A DNA stretch of 11,473 nt, the filler included, from an uncultured bacterium (GTDB lineage: Bacteria; B130-G9), in NCBI GenBank assembly GCA_965372715.1. It is 5 parts of 5 records of this genome, joined end to end, with 100 filler letters (N's around TTAATTAATTAA, not from the genome) between each part and the next. Parts side by side here need not be neighbours in the genome. Positions count along the whole stretch, not along the records: positions 7,568 to 9,775 come from CBDVDH010000110.1; 4 more parts are not named here. One strand, written 5' to 3'. This document shows positions 1 through 11,473 of the stretch, piece by piece. The notes beneath the pieces were generated by a model, which saw nothing but the letters and a program-made list of their open reading frames with translations, had not been told where the DNA came from and did not search any database. How positions within the stretch are numbered: position 1 is the first letter of the stretch; each line of letters begins with the position of its first letter. The position numbers and the translations under genes were made by a program.

Positions 1-55
1 GGAAAGCCCGCCCCACACCTCATGGCATCGCGAGTTTATGAATAATACGGATTAA
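1..55. mobile_element. MITE-like family A, right end (partial REP arm plus terminus GTTTATGAATAATACGGA, then TTAA)
   Basis: 1-48 aligns ungapped to 7702-7749 at 40/48 identity. 1-19 is the exact reverse complement of sequence around 11439-11457. Cut by the window start. Confidence 0.75.
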
Positions 56-2293: not shown

Positions 2294-2416
2294 GAGGCTG
2301 GGACATAAGTCGTTGCGGATGTGTAGTGGCGTGGTCTCAGACCCGCCCTCTCGAATTGATGGTCGCATAAGATGCCTCGTATCCGGAGGGATTCATGTAG
2401 GCGGGCGGGTCTGAGA
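2294..2416. mobile_element. MITE-like family B copy: terminus GAGGCTGGGACATAAGTC, REP, spacer, truncated inverted REP
   Basis: 2294-2348 matches the reverse complement of 7568-7622 at 52/55. 2321-2385 matches 9711-9775 at 63/65. 2403-2416 GGGCGGGTCTGAGA is inverted to 2335-2348. Confidence 0.8.
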
Positions 2417-2632: not shown

Positions 2633-4511
2633 CAGGGTTCTCGTATGTCAGCGCGACCGTCATCGTGTCGCCCGCGTGATAGAGCTCTGCGTCCGTCGTG
2701 ATAGCTATCGAGGGCCTCGCCGGCTGGAGGCCCGACTCCTGGCATACCAGGCCGGTCGGCGTTGCGAACCAGACGTCAGCGTTGGGCGCTATCGAGATGT
2801 CGCGTATCTTGTTGACGGGCAGCCCGCTGTCGATGTCCCACATGGTCCACTCGTTCCGGTCGAAATAACCAAGCCCGTCGTCTGTGCCGACCCAGATATG
2901 GTTCGCCCCGTCGCACTCGATGCAGTTGATCCGATTTGACGGCAGGCCGTCATCGACCGTGTACCAAGCGAGTTCATTCTCGCCGTCGAACTGTAGGACA
3001 CCCATCTGACTGACATCAAAACCTATCCAGAGCAGGCCGTCGCTGTCGCAGGCGATTGTGCTTACGTTAGGATACTCAGGCCGCCAATCAACGAGTGCGT
3101 CGTTTTGCAGCACAGCAAGGCCCTGATCGGTGCCGACCCACACCTTTCCCTCCAAATCGGAAGCGATGCACCGAGGGTCGATAGGCGGTGATGCGCCCTG
3201 AACGCTCCACGACTGCCAGGTGTAATCCCCCTCGTATTTGGCCACGCCAGTGCCGCAACATATCCACATATTGTCGTTCATATCCCGGCAAATGTCCTTG
3301 CAAGAGCCAAGTCCTATGCCACCGGTACCTGCTCTGCGATAGTCGATCATCGTGCCTCGCCACACCTTTAGATTCGAGCTGCAGGCCAGCCAGATTGACT
3401 CGCCGGGGCCGAACTCGATGTCGCGAACCTCGTCGCCAAATGTGAGCTCGGGTTGATATATCACCTGCCATTGGGAGCCGTCGTAGTAGCCGAGCTGACC
3501 GCTGCCCGTCCCGTAGAAGAGCTGGCCCCGATCGTTTACCGCCACCGATGATATATCATTGTTAATGACCGAGCTCTCAGCGCCCGTGTAGCAGCTCCAT
3601 AGGCCATTCTTGTATCGAGCGAGCCCTGCGGTGGTCGTGAAATAGACGGAGCCATCCGCTCCTGAGGCTATCCCACCGATTCCGTTGGAGGGCAGGCCGC
3701 TGTTGACCGTGTTAAAGACGGTCCAATTCTCACCATCGAACATCGAGACTCCCGCATCAAAGCCGTCCGCGACCCATACCCGGCCTAACGTGTCAACGTC
3801 CAGGTATTTCGGGTAATTGCCTGCAAGGCCGTCTGACATGCCATACGACCGCACAAACTCCCCATCCTGGAACACACTCACGTCGCCCATCCAGCCCGTG
3901 AGCCACACCTCCCCCGGCAGCCGGGCCGCCATATCGTCGGCCGACATATCGCGATACTCGTCAAACAGGGTCCACTCTCCGTCGCGGTATCTGGCCAGGC
4001 CTTCACGAAAGACGAACCAGCCGGTCCCGTCAGCCTCAAAGCAGATTTCGCTGGCTCCCCTCGTTGATGGGTAGTCGTATATCTCATCCCATAACCCATC
4101 CTCAAAGCGCATCAGCACCCCAAGCTGAACGTCTGTTCGGAACTTGCTGGCCCAGACGGTCCCGTCAGGCGAGACTGCCAGTTCGTGCCCGGGGCCCGTT
4201 GGGAACAAGTACATCTCCACCTCGCCCTGATAGAGGCGCCAGGGCCTCCCCGCGTAGAACCAGACGGCGTCGGATGCATCTACCGCGACGCTCCCGGAGG
4301 CGGACGTTGGCAGGTTGTAGCTCACTATATCCTCTGTGGCAGGGTCGAAACCTTTCATATCCGACCCCAGCCGATACCAGACCACCCCCTGCGAATCTAC
4401 GTCCATCTCCGCTCCACCCGCGAACGAATTCTGGTAGAGTACGAAGTCCTGGGCGAACGCAATTGACAGAACAAGCAAAGCAGTAAATAGAAAACATGCA
4501 GCAATTCTCAT
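2633..4511 (-). CDS. Secreted beta-propeller repeat protein (two-component-regulator-propeller-like repeats), 3' truncated
   Basis: Signal peptide MRIAACFLFTALLVLSIAFA-Q. Many repeats of type GLPSN-I--I--D--G-VWVGT--GL--FDG--W. A different beta-rich domain (PSIAITTDAELYHAGDTMTVALTYENP) begins at the contig end. ATG 4511 is preferred over 4520 because AAGGAG (4521-4526) abuts 4520 but is 9 nt from 4511. Confidence 0.88.
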
Positions 4512-4543
4512 CTTAAGCATCTCCTTGTTTTAGTGTGATGTTA

Positions 4544-4569
4544 GGGGGACCGGCAAGGGCCGGCCCCCC
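4544..4569 (-). terminator. GC-rich intergenic stem-loop without U-tract (terminator, pause or stability hairpin)
   Basis: Minus strand GGGGGGCCGGC-CCTT-GCCGGTCCCCC: 11-bp stem with one G-U pair that works only on the minus strand; 14 nt after the stop at 4584. Confidence 0.55.
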
Positions 4570-4583
4570 CGAGTTAGCTTTCT

Positions 4584-5000
4584 CTAGCTTCCGCAGGCTC
4601 CGGTGTTGAAATGTTGAGTCATGGTCCGCTCATCGTCGCAATCTGCGCAGCCGAAGTAATAGAGATACACGGTGTTCGGCTCCAGCTCGAGCGTCCCGCC
4701 ATACAGCATACAGACCGGATACGGCGGCCCCACCGTCTCCAGGGTCAAGAGGAACGCTGTGTACTCGTCTTCTCCCTCCTGCGCCCTGAAATACAGGTAA
4801 ACGTCGTGGCCCATCCCACAATCCCGCGAGTGGTCCACGGTGAAGTGCCACCAACAGGTCTCAACGACCTGAAGTGCATTGCCATTGCAGATGCAATGGT
4901 CTTCTCCACAGCAGTCGGACGCCCAGACATAGGCCACGATCCCAGCAGCAATGACCAAACAGATTGACAAGACTATCAGAGACTTTTGATTGATTTGTAT
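4584..5000 (-). CDS. Small cysteine-rich secreted hypothetical protein, probably 5' truncated
   Basis: The frame stays open from the TTG at 4970 to the contig end (IQINQKSLIVLSICLVIAAGIVAYVWA-S, signal-peptide-like). 10 Cys in the ~111-aa mature part. Followed by a hairpin and co-oriented with the propeller gene. Confidence 0.72.
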   Translation of the reverse strand: MQINQKSLIVLSICLVIAAGIVAYVWASDCCGEDHCICNGNALQVVETCWWHFTVDHSRDCGMGHDVYLYFRAQEGEDEYTAFLLTLETVGPPYPVCMLYGGTLELEPNTVYLYYFGCADCDDERTMTQHFNTGACGS

Positions 5001-5100
5001 NNNNNNNNNNNNNNNNNNNNNNNNNNNNNNNNNNNNNNNNNNNNTTAATTAATTAANNNNNNNNNNNNNNNNNNNNNNNNNNNNNNNNNNNNNNNNNNNN
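5001..5100. other. Artificial contig spacer
   Basis: N44-TTAATTAATTAA-N44. Confidence 0.99.
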
Positions 5101-5101
5101 A

Positions 5102-6115
5102 AAGGGGCTGCGGCTTGAGCATACCGGGCCCCCAGACCTTCCAATAACTGGCGTCGCAGCGATTGAATCCGCCGCTGAGGGCGACATCTCGTTCGTTACA
5201 GACCGCAAGCATCTGGCGGAGCTTGAGCAAACTCGGGCGAGCGCGGTTATCGTCTTTGAAGGGTGCGACGACTGCCGGCTGCCGCATATAACCTCGCCCA
5301 ATCCCTACCTGTCGTTCGTGGAAGTCGTGAACGTATTTCATCCTGAGCCGAGACCCGCCCCGGGCGTATCAGGCAGCGCAAGCGTCAGCCCCGAGGCGCA
5401 GGTCGCAAGCAGCGCAAGCGTCGGCGCCTTCAGCGTTATCGAAGCCGGCGCCTCAATCACTGCTGACTGCGTCATCTATGCGCAGGTCTATGTTGGCCGA
5501 AACGTCAAGATAGGGCCGGGTACGATCATCAAACCGCAGGTCTCGATACTGGATGACACGTCGATCGGCAAGAGGTGCATCATCCATTCGGGGACCGTCA
5601 TCGGCAGCGACGGTTATGGGTTCATAGATGACAAGGGCCGGCATGTGAAAATACCGCAAATCGGCAACGTTGAAATCGGCGACGACGTCGAGATCGGAGC
5701 GTGCGTCGCTATCGACCGGGGCACGTTCGGAAGCACTGTAATCGGCTCAGGCTGCAAAATCGACAACCTGGTGCACATCGCCCATAACGTTACGGTTGGA
5801 GAGAACACGCTGCTAGTGGCTCAGGTGGGGATAGCTGGCAGTTCCAGCATTGGAAAGCACTGCATCCTGGCGGGTCAGGTCGGTGTTGCGGGGCACATAT
5901 CAATCGGGGACAACGTAATTGCCGCGAGCAAAGCAGGCATACCTCGCGACCTCAAAGAAGGCTCCGTAGTCGGGGGCATACCGGCGGTTCCGGTCGAGGT
6001 CTGGCGGAGGCAGGTTGCGACCATGCTCAGGTTGCCGAACCTGATGAAAGAACTGAAAGAGCTGAAAAAACAGGTCGAGGTCCTTAACGAGCGTCTTAGC
6101 GAAAGCGAGTCATAA
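5102..6115 (+). CDS. lpxD: UDP-3-O-(3-hydroxyacyl)glucosamine N-acyltransferase, 5' truncated
   Basis: Hexapeptide repeats with IGSDGYGF, KIPQIGNVEIGDDVEIGA, IDRG, KIDNLVHIAHN. The frame is open upstream of 5318 to the contig start and encodes the LpxD N-domain (ITGVAAIESAAEGDISFV...ASAVIV...NPYLSF). Confidence 0.96.
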   Translation, partial: KGLRLEHTGPPDLPITGVAAIESAAEGDISFVTDRKHLAELEQTRASAVIVFEGCDDCRLPHITSPNPYLSFVEVVNVFHPEPRPAPGVSGSASVSPEAQVASSASVGAFSVIEAGASITADCVIYAQVYVGRNVKIGPGTIIKPQVSILDDTSIGKRCIIHSGTVIGSDGYGFIDDKGRHVKIPQIGNVEIGDDVEIGACVAIDRGTFGSTVIGSGCKIDNLVHIAHNVTVGENTLLVAQVGIAGSSSIGKHCILAGQVGVAGHISIGDNVIAASKAGIPRDLKEGSVVGGIPAVPVEVWRRQVATMLRLPNLMKELKELKKQVEVLNERLSESES

Positions 6116-6138
6116 CAAGCTATTCTGGGGTGTAGCAC

Positions 6139-6591
6139 GTGGACGAGATGATAAACGTCGAGGGGATCATGCGGTTCCTGCCGCATAGGTTCCCGTTCTT
6201 GATGGTTGACAGGATAATAGAGATGGACACGGAGAAAGGTACCATTGTGGGGCTCAAGAACGTATCGGTAAACGAGTGGTTTTTTCAGGGCCATTTCCCC
6301 GAACAGAAGGTCATGCCCGGCGTCTTGCTGATTGAGGCGCTTGCCCAGACCGGCGGGGTACTTTTGATGAACCAGCTCGAGGACCCCGAGAACAAGCTCC
6401 TGGTGTTCATGACGATCGACAAGGCCAAGTTCCGCAAGCCTGTTGTCCCGGGCGATCAGGCGCGGCTCGAGCTGACTCAAACTGGACTGCGGGCGGGTTA
6501 TTGCAGGATGCAGGGGAAAGCGATTGTCGATGGGAAGGTAGTGGCCGAGGCCGTCATGAGCACAGCAATCGTCGAGAAAGACAGGAAATGA
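6139..6591 (+). CDS. fabZ: 3-hydroxyacyl-ACP dehydratase
   Basis: LPHRFPFLMVDRI, KNVSVNEWFFQGHFP, MPGVLLIEALAQ, KFRKPVVPGD; lies between lpxD and lpxA. The start may be ATG 6148. Confidence 0.97.
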   Translation: MDEMINVEGIMRFLPHRFPFLMVDRIIEMDTEKGTIVGLKNVSVNEWFFQGHFPEQKVMPGVLLIEALAQTGGVLLMNQLEDPENKLLVFMTIDKAKFRKPVVPGDQARLELTQTGLRAGYCRMQGKAIVDGKVVAEAVMSTAIVEKDRK

Positions 6592-7367
6592 AAGCGCATG
6601 AGACCGCGATAGTCTCGCCCGGGGCGGAGATCGCCGCCGACGTCGTGATTGGCCCTCGGTGCGTCATAGACGACGGTGTCAAGATCGGTCGCGGCACGCA
6701 GATTCAGCTGGGGGCGCACATAACCGGGACGACAACGATCGGTGAGAACTGCCAGATATTCCCTTACGCGATCATCGGCGTTGTGCCTCAGGACTTGAAG
6801 TTCGGGGGTGAGGAGACTTCGGTCGTCATCGGCGACAACAACGTTATCCGAGAGTTTGTGACTGTCCATCGCGGCACAATGGATGGCGGCGGGGTGACCC
6901 GCATCGGCAGCAACAACCTCATCATGGCGTATAGCCACGTTGCCCACGACTGCCGGATCGGCAATCACGTAATCCTAGCGAACGCGGCGTCGTTTGCCGG
7001 CCACATCATTGTCGAAGACCACGCGGTCATCGGCGGCTTGGTCGGCGTGCACCAATTCACACAAATCGGCGCCTACTCAATGACGGGAGGGTGCTCCGGT
7101 GTCGATAGGGATGTTCTGCCTTACACACAGGTCGCCGGCAACAGGGCAAAGCACTTCGCGCCCAACCTCGTCGGGCTGCGGCGCGCAGGGTTCTCGTCCG
7201 AGAAGATTCGGATGCTCAAAGAGGTCTATCGACTCATATTCAAGGCCGACCTGAAACGCGAGGCCGCGCTCAAGCGCATTGAGGAGCAGTTCGGCGAGTT
7301 CGACGAGGCAATACACATTCTCGAATTCATCAGACACTCAAGGCGCGGCCTGTGTCCGGCACAATAG
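6588..7367 (+). CDS. lpxA: Acyl-ACP--UDP-N-acetylglucosamine O-acyltransferase
   Basis: PQDLKF, IREFVTVHRGT, HVAHDC, AGH, VHQF, NLVGLRRAGF. Start re-called at ATG 6588 (MKAHETAIV), overlapping the fabZ stop as ATGA. Confidence 0.97.
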   Translation: MKAHETAIVSPGAEIAADVVIGPRCVIDDGVKIGRGTQIQLGAHITGTTTIGENCQIFPYAIIGVVPQDLKFGGEETSVVIGDNNVIREFVTVHRGTMDGGGVTRIGSNNLIMAYSHVAHDCRIGNHVILANAASFAGHIIVEDHAVIGGLVGVHQFTQIGAYSMTGGCSGVDRDVLPYTQVAGNRAKHFAPNLVGLRRAGFSSEKIRMLKEVYRLIFKADLKREAALKRIEEQFGEFDEAIHILEFIRHSRRGLCPAQ

Positions 7368-7467
7368 CATCTCAGAACCATGTGTTGTCATCCTTCCATA
7401 CGCAAATCAACCCAACGACGCAATAAATGCAATTGCCGCGTGGATGGTCAAAAGGATCCCGTAGGGG

Positions 7468-7567
7468 NNNNNNNNNNNNNNNNNNNNNNNNNNNNNNNNN
7501 NNNNNNNNNNNTTAATTAATTAANNNNNNNNNNNNNNNNNNNNNNNNNNNNNNNNNNNNNNNNNNNN
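7468..7567. other. Artificial contig spacer
   Basis: N44-TTAATTAATTAA-N44. Confidence 0.99.
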
Positions 7568-7622
7568 GGGCGGGTCTGAGACCACGCCCCTACACAACCG
7601 CAACGACTTATGACCCAGCCTC
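7568..7622. mobile_element. MITE-like family B, right arm (inverted REP plus terminus ...GACTTATGACCCAGCCTC)
   Basis: Reverse complement is 52/55 identical to 2294-2348; contains the REP GTAGGGGCGTGGTCTCAGACCCGCCC on the minus strand. Confidence 0.8.
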
Positions 7623-7756
7623 TTCCAGCCTGCCAAAGTCAGGTCTCGCGCGACAGAGTGTTCCATGTGAGGGATGCAGCAATCACTACAAAAGGCAGGC
7701 TGGAAAGCCTGCCCCACATCCCATCCCATCTGCAGTTTATGAATAATACCTGCTAG
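7623..7756. mobile_element. MITE-like family A copy, interrupted in its left REP by family B
   Basis: TTCCAGCCTGCCAAAGTCAG (7623-7642) matches 11454-11473 at 19/20. Inverted REP GGCAGGCTGGAAAGCCTGCCCCAC at 7694-7717. Terminus GTTTATGAATAATACCTG then CTAG (7753-7756), homologous to 34-55. Confidence 0.78.
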
Positions 7757-7903
7757 ATCTAGGCGACACGGTCGGCGACCTTTGCCGGCCCATGTCCCAG
7801 GAGCAAGAAGCGCTCGGATTCCGGATCCTGCGCTCGATTCTCGAGCGCCTCGCCTGGCTCTCAACAAGTGCCGTCCTGTTCATCCGTAGGAGGCACTCCC
7901 GTA

Positions 7904-7981
7904 ATGCGGCTATACAAGGCCATTCAAGACCGAAAAGAGTCTGTCCGGAGAATGGCCCGCAACCTGCTTACCCATTACTAA
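7904..7981 (+). CDS. Possible small ORF, 25 aa (MRLYKAIQDRKESVRRMARNLLTHY)
   Basis: AGGAGG at 7888-7893, 10 nt before the ATG; no recognisable homology. Confidence 0.3.
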   Translation: MRLYKAIQDRKESVRRMARNLLTHY

Positions 7982-7997
7982 ATGGAGGAAATATCAG

Positions 7998-8042
7998 ATG
8001 TCTAACTTTGGACCAGCAACAAGAAAGGAGTGGGAAAGATGA
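7998..8042 (+). CDS. Possible 14-aa leader ORF (MSNFGPATRKEWER) coupled to the sigma gene
   Basis: GGAGG at 7984-7988, 9 nt before the ATG; stop TGA 8040-8042 overlaps the sigma ATG 8039 (ATGA). Confidence 0.35.
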   Translation: MSNFGPATRKEWER

Positions 8043-9619
8043 GAGAAGCAAAGAGGTCCAGGAAGCAACGGGCTAAGCGCAAGGATGCTGCGAAGCAGGT
8101 CTTCAGCCCGGCGCTTGCTGTGGAAGTCATTTCTGATGACTTTTGTCTGGACGAACCCGGGTCTTGTATAGCGGGCGAGGCGCCCGAGCCGGGTGCGCTT
8201 AAAGATTTCGGCGAGCATGATCGAAATGTTGTTCGCCAAACGGAAAGCGGAACATTTGGGAGGGATGGTTTCGTGCGCTACTTAGCGAGCCTGGCTGGTG
8301 AGTCCCTTCTGACTCAGGAGGACGAGGTTGAGCTGGGCAAAGAGATGGCGTTTGGCCGAGAGGCCGTTCGCCAGGCCATTCTCGAGAACGGCATTGAGCT
8401 AATCCCGCTCTGCGATGCCATCAATCGGCTTCGAGCAGGCGAGATGACTATCCGTCAGATCGTCGATCTCGACAGCTTCGAGTGCGGGGACGAGCTGGCC
8501 GACCGCAATCTCGCGCTGCTTGAGCTCTTGAAGGAGTTCAATGTCGAGGCAACGCGATACGTCCGTCTAATGGAGGCCTATCTGGACGGGTCATTCGACG
8601 ACGGGAGGCTCGAGTCTGTTGAAAGCCTGCGCGATACCATTCATGAGCTCGGAACACGGATACCTTTGCAGGACTCGTTCCTCACGCAGATAGCCGACGA
8701 CGTCGTCGGTTTCGCCGACTCAGGTCAGCAGGATGACGACGGTGCCGTAACTGAGGCGAACTGCGAGTGCTCTGGAGAGGTCAGCAATCCCGACAGAGTC
8801 TTAGAGGCTGAACGAACTGCTTATGAGACGTTCGGTTTGTGCCTTTGTGTGCTCATGCCGATTGCGGACCAGATTCGCGACGGGCTGGGGCTGTGGCGCA
8901 GAGCGCAATCGCAGCTTGTCCGCTCGAACCTTCGGCTCGTCGTCTGCATTGCGAAGCACTACATGAACGCCGGCGTTCCGTTTGAGGACATGGTGCAGGA
9001 AGGCAACATGGGCCTGATGCGGGCCACGGAGAAGTTTGAGTATCAGCGAGGCACCAGATTCTCGACCTATTCGGCGTTTTGGATCAGACACTCCATAATC
9101 AAGTCGATTGAGCGTCAGTCAAGGACAATCCGCCTGCCGGGCCACGTTTTTGAGTTCTCAAACCGCATCTCCACCACGGCTGTTGCGTTTCAGCAGAAGC
9201 TCGGCCGGCCGCCGACGGAGTCTGAGATAGCCGACATACTCGGCGTCAGCGAGCAGAAAGTCGAAGAGGTGACGGGCTACTCCCACTACTCGGTTGTTCC
9301 CCTATTCACGGACAGGGACGGCGAGGACGAGTTGAACCTGATCGACGTCTTGCCCAACAAGTCCTGCAAACAGCCTGAACACTATATCGAAGAGTGTGAG
9401 ATAGCGAACGGATTGGATAAGGCCCTCGACGTCCTCAGCGAAAAAGAGCGGCTGGTCGTAGAGCTTAGAAACGGGCTCAAGGATGGGCATCCGCACTCGC
9501 TGCGCGAGGTTGGGGATGCGCTTTGCTTGACCCGAGAGCGAATCAGGCAAATAGAGAAGGCCGCACTTGACAAGATGCGCGTTTCGGGGCTGGCGGACAC
9601 GCTGGTAGCATACGTCTAG
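8039..9619 (+). CDS. Sigma70-family (RpoD/SigA-like, divergent, probably alternative) RNA polymerase sigma factor, 526 aa
   Basis: Region 1.2 (RYLASLAGESLLTQEDEVELG), long non-conserved region, region 2 (NLRLVVCIAKHY...DMVQEGNMGLMRATEKFEYQRGTRFSTY), region 3 (KLGRPPTESEIA) and region 4 (SLREVG...TRERIRQIE). ATG 8039 is chosen for AAGGAG at 8025-8030. Too divergent to name rpoD. Confidence 0.93.
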   Translation: MREAKRSRKQRAKRKDAAKQVFSPALAVEVISDDFCLDEPGSCIAGEAPEPGALKDFGEHDRNVVRQTESGTFGRDGFVRYLASLAGESLLTQEDEVELGKEMAFGREAVRQAILENGIELIPLCDAINRLRAGEMTIRQIVDLDSFECGDELADRNLALLELLKEFNVEATRYVRLMEAYLDGSFDDGRLESVESLRDTIHELGTRIPLQDSFLTQIADDVVGFADSGQQDDDGAVTEANCECSGEVSNPDRVLEAERTAYETFGLCLCVLMPIADQIRDGLGLWRRAQSQLVRSNLRLVVCIAKHYMNAGVPFEDMVQEGNMGLMRATEKFEYQRGTRFSTYSAFWIRHSIIKSIERQSRTIRLPGHVFEFSNRISTTAVAFQQKLGRPPTESEIADILGVSEQKVEEVTGYSHYSVVPLFTDRDGEDELNLIDVLPNKSCKQPEHYIEECEIANGLDKALDVLSEKERLVVELRNGLKDGHPHSLREVGDALCLTRERIRQIEKAALDKMRVSGLADTLVAYV

Positions 9620-9665
9620 TTCCTTAGTGTTTCACTCGAATCGTCCAGAAGAAGGACGGGCCAGC

Positions 9666-9680
9666 GTGGCGCGGGCTTTT
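9666..9680 (+). repeat. Left half of a GTGG-type REP hairpin, interrupted at its loop
   Basis: GTGGCGCGGGCTTTT vs the intact REP GTGGGGCGGGCTTTCCAGCCTGCC at 11442-11465; followed directly by a family B terminus. Confidence 0.6.
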
Positions 9681-9775
9681 CAGCCTGGGTCATAATTCGA
9701 ATCTGGGGTTGTGTAGGGGCGTGGTCTCAGACCCGCCCTCTCTAATTGATGGTCGCATAAGATGCCTCGTATCCG
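9681..9775. mobile_element. MITE-like family B, left part (terminus CAGCCTGGGTCATAA, REP, spacer), cut by contig end
   Basis: 9711-9775 is 63/65 identical to 2321-2385; the terminal 15 nt match GAGGCTGGGTCATAA at 13/15. Confidence 0.8.
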
Positions 9776-9875
9776 NNNNNNNNNNNNNNNNNNNNNNNNN
9801 NNNNNNNNNNNNNNNNNNNTTAATTAATTAANNNNNNNNNNNNNNNNNNNNNNNNNNNNNNNNNNNNNNNNNNNN
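9776..9875. other. Artificial contig spacer
   Basis: N44-TTAATTAATTAA-N44. Confidence 0.99.
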
Positions 9876-9936
9876 CCTTCATATCCGCCTTTGGCGAGAC
9901 TGCGCCTGCCGGCGAGCGTTCGGTCGCATCAGACAA

Positions 9937-9960
9937 GGGCGGGGCAAGCACCGCCCCTAC
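9937..9960 (-). repeat. GTAG-type REP hairpin GTAGGGGCGGTGCTTGCCCCGCCC
   Basis: GTAG plus imperfect GC palindrome (GGGCGG...CCGCCC); shares GTAGGGGCG and CCCGCCC with the family B REP. Confidence 0.7.
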
Positions 9961-10029
9961 ACCATCTATCACGCTTCCTGCAGCCACATTCTGCACATCG
10001 CCCCACAATCGAACATCGTCACCTTGATC

Positions 10030-10058
10030 TTGACAATCGGCCTGATTTCCAGTATCAT
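10030..10058 (+). promoter_or_regulatory. Near-consensus sigma70 promoter TTGACA-17 nt-TATCAT
   Basis: -35 at 10030-10035 (6/6), 17-nt spacer, -10 at 10053-10058 (5/6). No convincing sense gene downstream. Confidence 0.55.
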
Positions 10059-10093
10059 CTTTCTGCAAATCGACGAAGAAACCTCCAGGGCCT

Positions 10094-10111
10094 GACTTAT
10101 CGGACAGCCTC
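10094..10111 (-). mobile_element. IS/MITE-like terminus related to family B (GAGGCTGTCCGATAAGTC)
   Basis: 14/18 identical to GAGGCTGGGACATAAGTC (2294-2311), with the first 7 and last 7 nt identical; oriented as a right end downstream of an inverted REP. Confidence 0.5.
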
Positions 10112-10127
10112 TCAAACGCGCTGATGC

Positions 10128-11258
10128 CTAGGTCCCGTCGATCGCTATGACCTCATAGTCTTTGCGGCCCAGGCCGAGTCGCTGCGCCTCATCGAGGCAG
10201 ACCTGCGGGTCGGGCCTGTGCAGGTCGGCTAGGAGCTTGCCGCGGGGCTTGAGGCCCAGGTCTGAGGCGAAAGAGTTTGGCAGCGGGTCCTGCGCGTTCA
10301 CCATGTCGAGCGAGGCCTGGTCAATTGCGACGGGGTCGTCCCCGATGAGGATGCCGATGTCCTGCGCGATGGCGACGTCGGCGCCGGGCATGCAGTCGCA
10401 CTCGGGTTGGATGTCGAGCATGAGGTTGACGTAGATGATCTTGCGCTTCTTGAACGTCGAGAGGACGGCTTTCGCACCCTCCATTAGCCTGAGCTGAAAC
10501 TCTGTCACGTCAATCGGATCGAACAATGCGCCGGTCGGGCACACTCTGGCGCAACGGCCGCACGCCCAGCAGAGCCGCGCGTCGATCTTGAGCTTCGTTT
10601 TCTCGATGCTGAGTGCCTTTCTGGGGCAGACCTCGACGCATGCCATGCAGAACGTGCATTTCGTCTTGTCCCAACTCATCCGCTCGGGCGTCGAGAGGTG
10701 TATCCCGCCTCGGCCTTTGCCCTTGCAGGACCGGTGGCGAGCGCTGACGCCGCCCATCGAAAGATGTTTCAAAGCGCCTCCAAAGCCGGACTGGACGTGG
10801 CCCTTGAAGTGCGACAGAACGACCATTGCCGGGACATCGTGTATCACCGAGGCAACCGCCAGCTTGTCAATGAGGGGGCCGGAGTCCATCAGAATGTTGT
10901 CGGCGCCAAAGAGCCCGTCGGCGAGCACGAGAGGCGCGCCGCACGTCTCTTGACTGATGCCGTTGTAGTTGGCCACGCGGAGGTAATCGAGGCCCGGGAT
11001 GCGGACAGTCTCCGTAATGAACGGATCGCCGCCGGCGGCTCTGATTCGATCTACCGTCTTCCGGATGAAAGTCGTCCTGATTGGCCTGAATGCGCCCTCC
11101 GAGCCCCAGTGGACTTTGACCGCGACCCACTCGTCTCTGTCAATGCAGCCCTCGAAGTCGAACCCCTTGAGCATCCGCTCGTATTTGCCGGGCAGACTGT
11201 CCTGATACAGCCATTTTGTGTTTCTCGCTGATACGAAATAGAGTTTCGATTTAGTCAT
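10128..11258 (-). CDS. DUF362-domain Fe-S protein with 2x[4Fe-4S] ferredoxin insert (COG2768-like), 376 aa
   Basis: VAVKVHWGSEG, GGDPFITE, LSHFKGH..SGFGGALKHLSMG, CTFCMACVEVCP and CWACGRCARVCP, PECDC, DIGIL...DPVAIDQASLD. Start re-called at ATG 11258 (MTKSKLYF) after GAGAGG. Confidence 0.9.
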   Translation of the reverse strand: MTKSKLYFVSARNTKWLYQDSLPGKYERMLKGFDFEGCIDRDEWVAVKVHWGSEGAFRPIRTTFIRKTVDRIRAAGGDPFITETVRIPGLDYLRVANYNGISQETCGAPLVLADGLFGADNILMDSGPLIDKLAVASVIHDVPAMVVLSHFKGHVQSGFGGALKHLSMGGVSARHRSCKGKGRGGIHLSTPERMSWDKTKCTFCMACVEVCPRKALSIEKTKLKIDARLCWACGRCARVCPTGALFDPIDVTEFQLRLMEGAKAVLSTFKKRKIIYVNLMLDIQPECDCMPGADVAIAQDIGILIGDDPVAIDQASLDMVNAQDPLPNSFASDLGLKPRGKLLADLHRPDPQVCLDEAQRLGLGRKDYEVIAIDGT

Positions 11259-11329
11259 CTGTCCTCTCACGTTCTTAGCCTTACAAGCCGACGGCCACCG
11301 GCTCAAGATATGATCTCAATTCTCTCAGA

Positions 11330-11358
11330 ATTGTATTGCGCCGCCCGATGTGGTGCAA
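11330..11358 (-). promoter_or_regulatory. Candidate sigma70 promoter of the DUF362 gene
   Basis: Minus strand TTGCAC-17 nt-TACAAT, about 70 nt upstream of ATG 11258. Confidence 0.55.
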
Positions 11359-11404
11359 GAGTCGAAAGTCGAGAGTCCGATGTCAAGCCTATTGCTAGAG
11401 TGGG

Positions 11405-11473
11405 CTAGCCCGAATAACTCAAGGGCATGACTCTCGTCGGTGTGGGGCGGGCTTTCCAGCCTGCCAAAGACAG
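11405..11473. mobile_element. MITE-like family A, left end (CTAG, terminus CCCGAATAACTCA, intact REP), cut by window end
   Basis: REP GTGGGGCGGGCTTTCCAGCCTGCC at 11442-11465 continues into AAAGACAG as at 7635-7642. The terminus matches the reverse complement of the 39-51 terminus (TCCGTATTATTCA) at 9/13, at nearly the same distance from the REP. Confidence 0.75.

Follow-up and report, generated by a model that had tools for sequence, protein, structure and literature searches.

The window, by which we mean the whole stretch of DNA analyzed here (11,473 bases), consists of five contigs in roughly descending length (1-2532, 2633-5000, 5101-7467, 7568-9775, and 9876-11473), separated by N..TTAATTAATTAA..N linkers at 2533-2632, 5001-5100, 7468-7567, and 9776-9875. 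The order of the contigs across the linkers is uninformative, and neighbors in the window are not neighbors in the genome. A conserved end motif, GSCTGGGWCATAAKTCG, is found at 2296-2312(+), 7604-7620(-), and 9683-9699(+), three matches against 0.01 expected from shuffled sequence. The repeat copies bounded by these ends, designated family B, are 94% identical between 2314-2385 and 9704-9775 and 93% complementary between 2291-2348 and 7568-7625; two of the three are truncated because the window contigs stop inside repeats. Read in its own orientation, each end is preceded directly by a G-rich half-hairpin and a 3-4-nt loop, namely, GTAGGGACGGGTCTGAG, GGCAGGCTGGAA (the reverse complement of window 7623-7634), and GTGGCGCGGGCTTTT. 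The initial annotation of this DNA had placed all three family B junctions beside REP halves, and all three are indeed present in the sequence, each next to half of a GC-rich hairpin. They represent one kind of end, a terminal inverted repeat (TIR), and the other end of the element is not among them.

At junction 1, the left arm and loop of a type-1-like GTAG hairpin (GTAGGGACGGGTCTGAG, 2277-2293, +) lead into the left part of a MITE (2294-2416, +), which comprises the TIR (2294-2312), a first REP (2323-2348), a 48-nt spacer, and the left half of an inverted second REP (2398-2416). The two REPs form a REPIN-like doublet whose pairing is worth -25.5 kcal/mol (z = -3.5). The tip of the second REP is in turn occupied by the left end of another MITE, family C (2417-2532, +), with a boundary uncertain by 2 nt and a right side cut by the contig end. 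At junction 3, a hairpin-half-like flank (GTGGCGCGGGCTTTT, 9666-9680, +), of which only GTGGCGCG is common to relatives, precedes a MITE left end (9681-9775, +) with a variant TIR (9681-9699) and a first REP (9713-9738), again cut by the contig end. Since similarity to an intact hairpin extends to 9687, this junction is ambiguous by up to 7 nt.

At junction 2, the contig begins inside a reversed copy (7568-7622, -; REP 7568-7593, TIR 7604-7622), the end of which abuts the loop of the left REP of family A at 7622/7623. Self-alignment, folding, and intact paralogues (C49:7271-7436 and C20:1-159 of the related genome G001, and also L233) define family A (7623-7749, +) as a REPIN-like doublet of type-2 hairpins, made up here of the loop TTCC and right arm AGCCTGCC of the left REP (7623-7634), a spacer of ~59 nt, and an intact right REP (7694-7718) whose tail extends to 7749. 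An unoccupied paralogue of the 7622/7623 target is provided by the type-2 hairpin GTGGGGCGGGCT TTCC AGCCTGCC, intact at 11442-11465(+): its loop and right arm, at 11454-11473, match 7623-7642 with 95% identity. The two intact hairpins, 11442-11465 and 7694-7718, fold with -7.9 and -10.1 kcal/mol, respectively. A further family A copy is represented at 1-48(+) by its right REP half and tail; this segment is 83% identical to 7702-7749, and 1-19 is 100% complementary to 11439-11457.

A fourth end of the same family (10094-10111, -), overlooked in the initial annotation and flanked by non-palindromic TCAAACGCG..., belongs to a further, partial element bounded by this kind of end (9876-10111, -), which holds an internal type-3 hairpin at ~9939-9962. 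Two copies of a separate palindrome class (AATTCGCC..GGCGAA) are present at 254-275 and 364-385. At the gathering score, no Rfam family is found in the window, with four loci giving only two sub-threshold chance matches, and a literature text search for the end sequence returned five matches, all unrelated. None of the Logan contigs of runs X1-X4 crosses 7622/7623 with at least 31 nt to its left and right, nor do any of them show an empty site; they represent a G001-like strain rather than the window's own (65 differences over 7800-9673) and neither confirm nor refute the window junctions. They do contain the joint 9775->7568, such that in some copies the second REP of B runs directly into an inverted end. 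Summed depth over the repeat in these runs is ~22-73x that of the single-copy part, a figure not to be taken as a copy number.

A scan of species-representative genomes for the end motif yielded at least 101 stretches, at least 10 of them from the metagenome-assembled genome (MAG) G001 and at least 2 from G002, while the rest of the matches listed look like chance or unrelated repeats. G001 is 92-97% identical to the window over four gene loci. Genome-wide counts were taken from it, with 1.18 of about 3.4 Mb examined; the count of ends given below comes from a pattern search of the whole genome. A family B query gave 65 matches in G001 with a typical span corresponding to window 2294-2416. Among 27 copies inspected, the left flanks vary and include at least three hairpin types, whereas the right end is nearly constant, ...GTCTGAGAC(A/C)(C/A)CGCCCCTAC. 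The limits that the initial annotation gave to the element need revision: inverted 19-mer pairs reveal an element of ~265 nt, bounded by 19-bp TIRs (GAGGCTGGGWCATAAKTCG), of which family B makes up no more than the left 136 nt. As the reference full copy we use C1:59018-59283 of G001 (266 nt). In the 266-nt copy, the ends are paired (-69.3 kcal/mol, z = -8.9), and the two internal type-1 hairpins pair as a REPIN-like doublet.

At up to three mismatches, G001 contains 98 ends (50 forward and 48 reverse), compared to 3 for a reversed-pattern control. They divide into left (10) and right (13) ends of full copies, 136-nt (19), 55-nt (7), and other (16) partials, ends of copies cut at contig ends (10), and ends of other short families that share the motif (23). 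There are 15 inverted end pairs with the 3-mismatch pattern and 14 near-full copies of the 266-nt reference by BLAST. Across the family, the end motif occurs in five of six genomes, 74 times in G001 and 4 to 7 times in each of the others (at most two mismatches). Elements range from ~160 to 270 nt, are present in many copies, and are of a length that leaves no space for a transposase gene. Together with TIRs, target-site duplication, and full-length insertion sequences (ISs) with the same ends, this is what identifies the element as a MITE, and the description of B as non-autonomous stands. The right half of the MITE also holds TTGACA-17-TATCGT/TATCAT, a putative sigma-70-like promoter reading outward; by sequence, candidates at window 10030-10058(+) and L123:1685-1713 would point out through the TIR into flanking DNA.

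The relationship of the element to hairpins is clearest in the full copies. Among the 14 in G001, 5 have an exact 4-nt duplication (TTCC, CTTG, ACCG, GGGA, and GGCA), versus 1.1% in mismatched-pair controls, and 7 match at 3 or more of the 4 nt, versus 11.5%; in the rest, the duplication is absent or inverted. Flanking arms are complementary at 7 or more of 8 positions in 8/14, against 28% of controls. When the flanks were joined in silico, five gave a hairpin whose apical loop contained the junction or bordered on it (z of -3 or below), and the other nine folded not clearly better than shuffles. Loop duplication, which had been put forward together with a tabulation of flanks, is thus seen in 5 of the full copies. 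The ends abut hairpin halves of at least three REP types, and 68 of the 98 are unpaired.

Viewed from the side of the targets, the REPs are abundant. Types 1 to 3 fit a GT(A/G)G head plus imperfect palindrome, with fold z scores of -2.0 to -4.0 (criterion from PMC2817692), and 1.18 Mb of G001 plus the window contain 145 type-1 matches as well as half-plus-loop matches to type 2 (36, and 30 reversed) and type 3 (39, and 14 reversed). An end follows directly after the half-plus-loop in 11/36 type 2, 5/30 type 2 reversed, 11/39 type 3, and 3/14 type 3 reversed cases, so that 30 of 119 are occupied, while most others run into the right arm. A GT[AG]G head is present in the flank of 38/98 ends and in 10/98 control windows. 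Under a strict paralogue test, in which the flank arm must equal the 5' arm of an intact hairpin elsewhere, only 12/98 ends qualify, versus 1/98 controls. In four other species, most ends, among the matches listed, also adjoin hairpin halves. The targets are without exception G+C-rich REPs whose arms resemble one another, so it may be sequence and not structure that is recognized.

In a further set of cases, the loop is inverted rather than directly duplicated, with TTCC on one side and GGAA on the other between complementary arms: C4:31609-31876, C78:9444-10126, and C113:1867-2133 in G001 and a full IS in G006 (L275:183-1983). Recombination between copies in different REPs, or a replaced interior of a REP doublet, would in principle yield such an arrangement. 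A search for loop-less perfect palindromes as unoccupied targets for these cases found none.

Full ISs with the same termini, found in the two sister species G005 and G006, indicate the origin of the element. One, in G005 (L274:208-1987), is 1,780 bp long, has 15 identical terminal nucleotides, and lies in a REP loop with TTCG on both sides, between the arms GGGTGGGCT and AGCCCGCC; its left flank ends in ...GTAGGGTGGGCTTTCG and its right flank begins with TTCGAGCCCGCC. The other, the G006 element named above, is 1,801 bp long, with a left flank ending in ...GTAGCCGCAGGCGGAA and a right flank beginning with TTCCGCCTACGGCTAC. Both ISs and the MITE share GAGGCTGT..ATAA termini. The IS products, of 486 and 493 amino acids, match the IS1182 family transposase model NF033551 with 312.3 and 302.8 bits, against a cut-off of 270; both contain DUF772, DDE_Tnp_1_6, and DDE_Tnp_1 domains. 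In G001, which is an incomplete genome, there is no intact transposase gene with MITE ends, zero rve matches, and two DDE_Tnp_1 matches with other ends; only a truncated IS1182 remnant with one such end is found (L276, C22:14014-17223, ~1500-1950 on the minus strand). The remnant has a 150-codon open frame with an in-frame 18-nt palindrome of the 'TTCGCC..GGCGAA' type and breaks off beside a putative tRNA gene.

The same 17-mer also begins small repeats in distant phyla, with examples in Staphylococcus rostri (L013, L038, and L064), Lentilactobacillus raoultii (L015, L056, and L089), and Shapirobacteria (L036, L040, and L092). In L. raoultii, it bounds a ~135-nt element whose opposite end carries the inverted motif; the flanks of one copy are complementary. 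A comparison of the S. rostri repeat end with plasmids gave no match. Judged by sequence, these repeats may be IS1182-family ends conserved across phyla, the matches having been selected by the motif itself.

Taken together, we consider it likely that family B is the end of a gene-less MITE that derives from an IS1182-family IS and lands in the tips of REP hairpins. Such a non-autonomous derivative would be mobilized in trans by the DDE transposase of that family, which would favor extruded or palindromic stem-loops. The element ends would be joined across the hairpin tip with a 4-nt stagger, so that one flank would consist of the left arm and the loop and the opposite flank of a second copy of the loop and the right arm, and REPs, as the commonest intergenic hairpins, would receive most insertions. 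Later recombination among similar REPs or MITE copies would truncate elements at internal REPs, swap flanks, and invert loops, giving many one-ended copies such as those at the window contig ends.

The partial copies and orthologous sites raise a different reading, namely, that element and half-hairpin move together. Modules composed of a half-REP, the end, and internal REPs would then spread by recombination, gene conversion, or template switching, using shared REP heads and tails as short homology in place of loop transposition, or would do so alongside transposition. Several observations fit this. At the G001 orthologue of junction 1, the element is present in both genomes and the head GTAGGGAC is kept, whereas the adjacent 8-9 nt, that is, the distal arm and loop, have been swapped (GGGTCTGAG in the window and GCTGCTTG in G001). 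At junction 3, the orthologous sites of G001, L230 (96% protein identity), and L231 (84%) have GTGGCGCG followed by the palindrome TTCGCCGCGCGGCGAA without a MITE, whereas the window has GTGGCGCG, GGCTTTT, and the element, so that the palindrome of the relatives is replaced and not interrupted. In these three relatives, the palindrome class AATTCGCC..GGCGAA comes after rpoD, at the place that the MITE takes up in the window; the site may have arisen either through REP-mediated recombination or through replacement of a stem-loop in the manner of IS1272. At 10111, window and G001 share the end but have different interiors. Junction 2 is without an orthologous comparison, as the window and G001 are unrelated upstream of 7800. 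The proposal that B inserts into hairpins is upheld by ends that abut hairpin halves and by loop duplication in full copies, but two orthologous sites show a swapped or replaced half-hairpin and not a plain interruption.

Partial copies, too, are compatible with module spread, as they stop exactly at internal REPs: 19 at the end of the second and 7 at that of the first. Those of 136 nt end in ...CCCCTAC, the outer edge of the second REP, and in the 27 inspected G001 copies, no arm complementary to the left half was seen after a partial copy. In a tree (137 columns, poorly resolved), partial copies are scattered among the full ones: the label changes 9 times, compared with a mean of 8.7 after shuffling. 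Having no clade apart from full copies, the partial copies look like repeated secondary truncations, and such independent truncation would suit the module reading as well. A specific deletion model for the 136-nt copies, in which slippage runs from the right arm of the internal REP to the right arm of the target, was tried and rejected, as three informative flanks mismatched the expected arm. The target bias of this model, an excess of GTAG-type targets in partial copies, was likewise not significant (11:2 versus 4:2; Fisher p = 0.56), and the same result speaks against module spread, which predicts this excess. Matching right arms and loop duplications in the full copies far above control, the likewise hairpin-bound placement of full ISs, and left halves that come from at least three REP types, mostly intact elsewhere, are also hard to reconcile with it. 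We therefore regard spread of preformed modules as unlikely to be the main explanation.

Less probable still is mobilization of B by a REP-associated tyrosine (Y1/HUH) transposase, in which case B would be a REPIN-like unit and its conserved end no more than a REP extension. The element does contain two inverted type-1 GTAG REPs, the 136-nt partials do end at the outer edge of the second, and G001 does have five Y1_Tnp (IS200/RAYT-like) matches, at C4:13590-13934, C17:37684-38028, C26:4610-4924, C29:8987-9331, and C40:16611-16970. The last of these, a weak Pfam match (E = 2e-5), lies between inverted type-1 GTAG REPs, but the conserved MITE end is absent beside them. The other four are flanked by other hairpin classes (e.g., CCGTAGGCGGAAGCCTACGG and TCACCGCGTTTCAACGCGGTGA), which are also found inside family C, and no Y1 gene flanked by type-2 or type-3 REPs was found in G001. 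Paired inverted ends with 4-nt duplications are hallmarks of DDE transposition, and the same ends bound IS1182 transposase genes. Moreover, the junctions TTCC/GAGG and CTTG/GAGG do not fall at the C/T step described for Escherichia coli TnpA-REP in the part of PMC3333891 available to us. We hold out very little prospect for a Y1-driven origin of the B copies. As for assembly artefacts at repeat breaks of short-read contigs, the window contigs, of ~2.2-2.5 kb, do end inside these repeats, and 7622/7623 is unbridged in the X1-X4 contigs, but the same junction types lie deep in long contigs of the independent G001 assembly (C1:59018-59283 and C3:62958-63222) and in four other species, and junction 1 recurs at its orthologous G001 site, so that this explanation is scarcely credible.

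Family C is represented by seven complete copies of 309-409 nt with a 22-bp TIR in the examined part of G001 (C2:53736-54099, C8:16738-17046, C27:17412-17773, and copies on C47, C58, C78, and C125), with an interior that carries hairpins of other classes. Six of the seven occupy the tips of type-1 REPs and have TCTNAGA at either side. Because one copy is at a non-hairpin TCTAAG site, the family C target may be sequence specific, possibly with a 3-nt TNA duplication and longer ends. In 1.18 Mb of G001 plus the window, none of the 145 type-1 REP matches is followed by a family B end under the pattern used, while 8 are followed by a family C end, and window 2416/2417 is a family C insertion in the tip of B's own second hairpin. 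Nesting is therefore real, but between families, and these type-1 matches give no case of self-nesting in the window lineage. The sister species G005 differs: there, a 161-nt relative with a duplicated CTTG occupies the loop of a hairpin belonging to an older copy of the same element (identity at 123 of 164 aligned columns). The self-nesting that the initial annotation had envisaged thus has a counterpart in G005, but not among the type-1 matches of G001. In G005 (L269, C363:2490-2950), ends at 87, 220, and 303 lie in one orientation within ~220 nt, the last two each after a hairpin half, in the manner of a head-to-tail array of short units.

A broader scenario can be sketched, though we hold it only tentatively and think it less probable than not. 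An IS1182-type transposase would read the shape of a hairpin and not its sequence, cutting 4 nt apart across the tip, and its MITEs would carry REP doublets and an outward promoter. MITEs moved by the DDE enzyme and REPs moved by Y1 enzymes would then feed each other, each insertion seeding new targets (its own in G005 and those of family C in the window lineage) and building nested intergenic arrays that re-wire the flanks.

With these findings, an IS1182-derived MITE from an uncultured lineage joins the elements that target REPs and hairpins, and natural examples become available of a loop-duplicating mode of structure-dependent transposition. The findings also bear on genome assembly and comparison, as short-read assemblies of the window lineage break up at repeats between genes, and genomes that are 92-97% identical differ from each other in their orthologous intergenic regions. 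The transposase, short substrates, and varied hairpins could be used to test DNA-shape recognition by a DDE enzyme.

Among known systems, several ISs use REPs as preferred targets. IS1397, for example, enters the REP loop with a 3-4-bp duplication. REP-targeting ISs of five families have been compiled, comprising IS1397, ISKpn1, and ISPsy8 (IS3), IS621, ISPpu9, and ISPpu10 (IS110), and members of IS4, IS256, and IS5; in the available part of that compilation, IS1182 is not among the families and MITEs are unmentioned (Tobes and Pareja 2006, PMC1525189). The preference for REPs is common to those ISs and to the element described here, which differs from the IS3 members IS1397 and ISKpn1 in that the transposases are of the IS1182 family and the incomplete G001 genome has no rve match. 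ISPpu9 is similar in that its non-autonomous modules are also found in REPs, but it belongs to the IS110 family, relies on RNA-guided sequence-specific recombination, and has neither TIR nor target-site duplication (PMC12288879). A GT(A/G)G head characterizes the REPs themselves, and inverted REPs flank the RAYT genes, according to the part of Nunvar et al. (2010, PMC2817692) at hand. Both the targets and the cargo of the MITE resemble the GT(A/G)G palindromes, often inverted doublets, of REP/REPIN/BIME and RAYT systems, as far as the portions of PMC2817692 and of Ton-Hoang et al. (2012, PMC3333891) at hand describe them. The MITE differs from a REPIN in its DDE-type inverted ends and duplications: it carries and occupies REPs and is not itself a REPIN.

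The closest likeness is to the IS1182 family member IS1272. The initial annotation had held the arrangement to be undescribed, and a limited literature search of main texts likewise found no description of a MITE in REP loops; the parent family, however, includes IS1272, which, in the part of Wan et al. (2017, PMC5678879) available to us, inserts at inverted-repeat structures varying in size and sequence. The autonomous relatives of our element encode IS1182-family transposases, have ~15-17-bp identical termini, and likewise target stem-loops of differing sequence. IS1272 itself removes the stem-loop and leaves no duplication, and the model in that same part of PMC5678879 includes an alternative in which only the loop is duplicated. 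In the clear cases here, the arms remain and the 4 nt of the loop are present twice, which corresponds to the pathway that PMC5678879, in the part seen, draws but does not document. Window site 3, of which the right side is missing, is the only candidate for IS1272-type removal. The present element differs further in being abundant as a non-autonomous derivative of 265 bp, in having REPs as its targets, and in its uncultured host. The MITE is thus a variant of the hairpin targeting already described for the IS1182 family and not a new kind of element.
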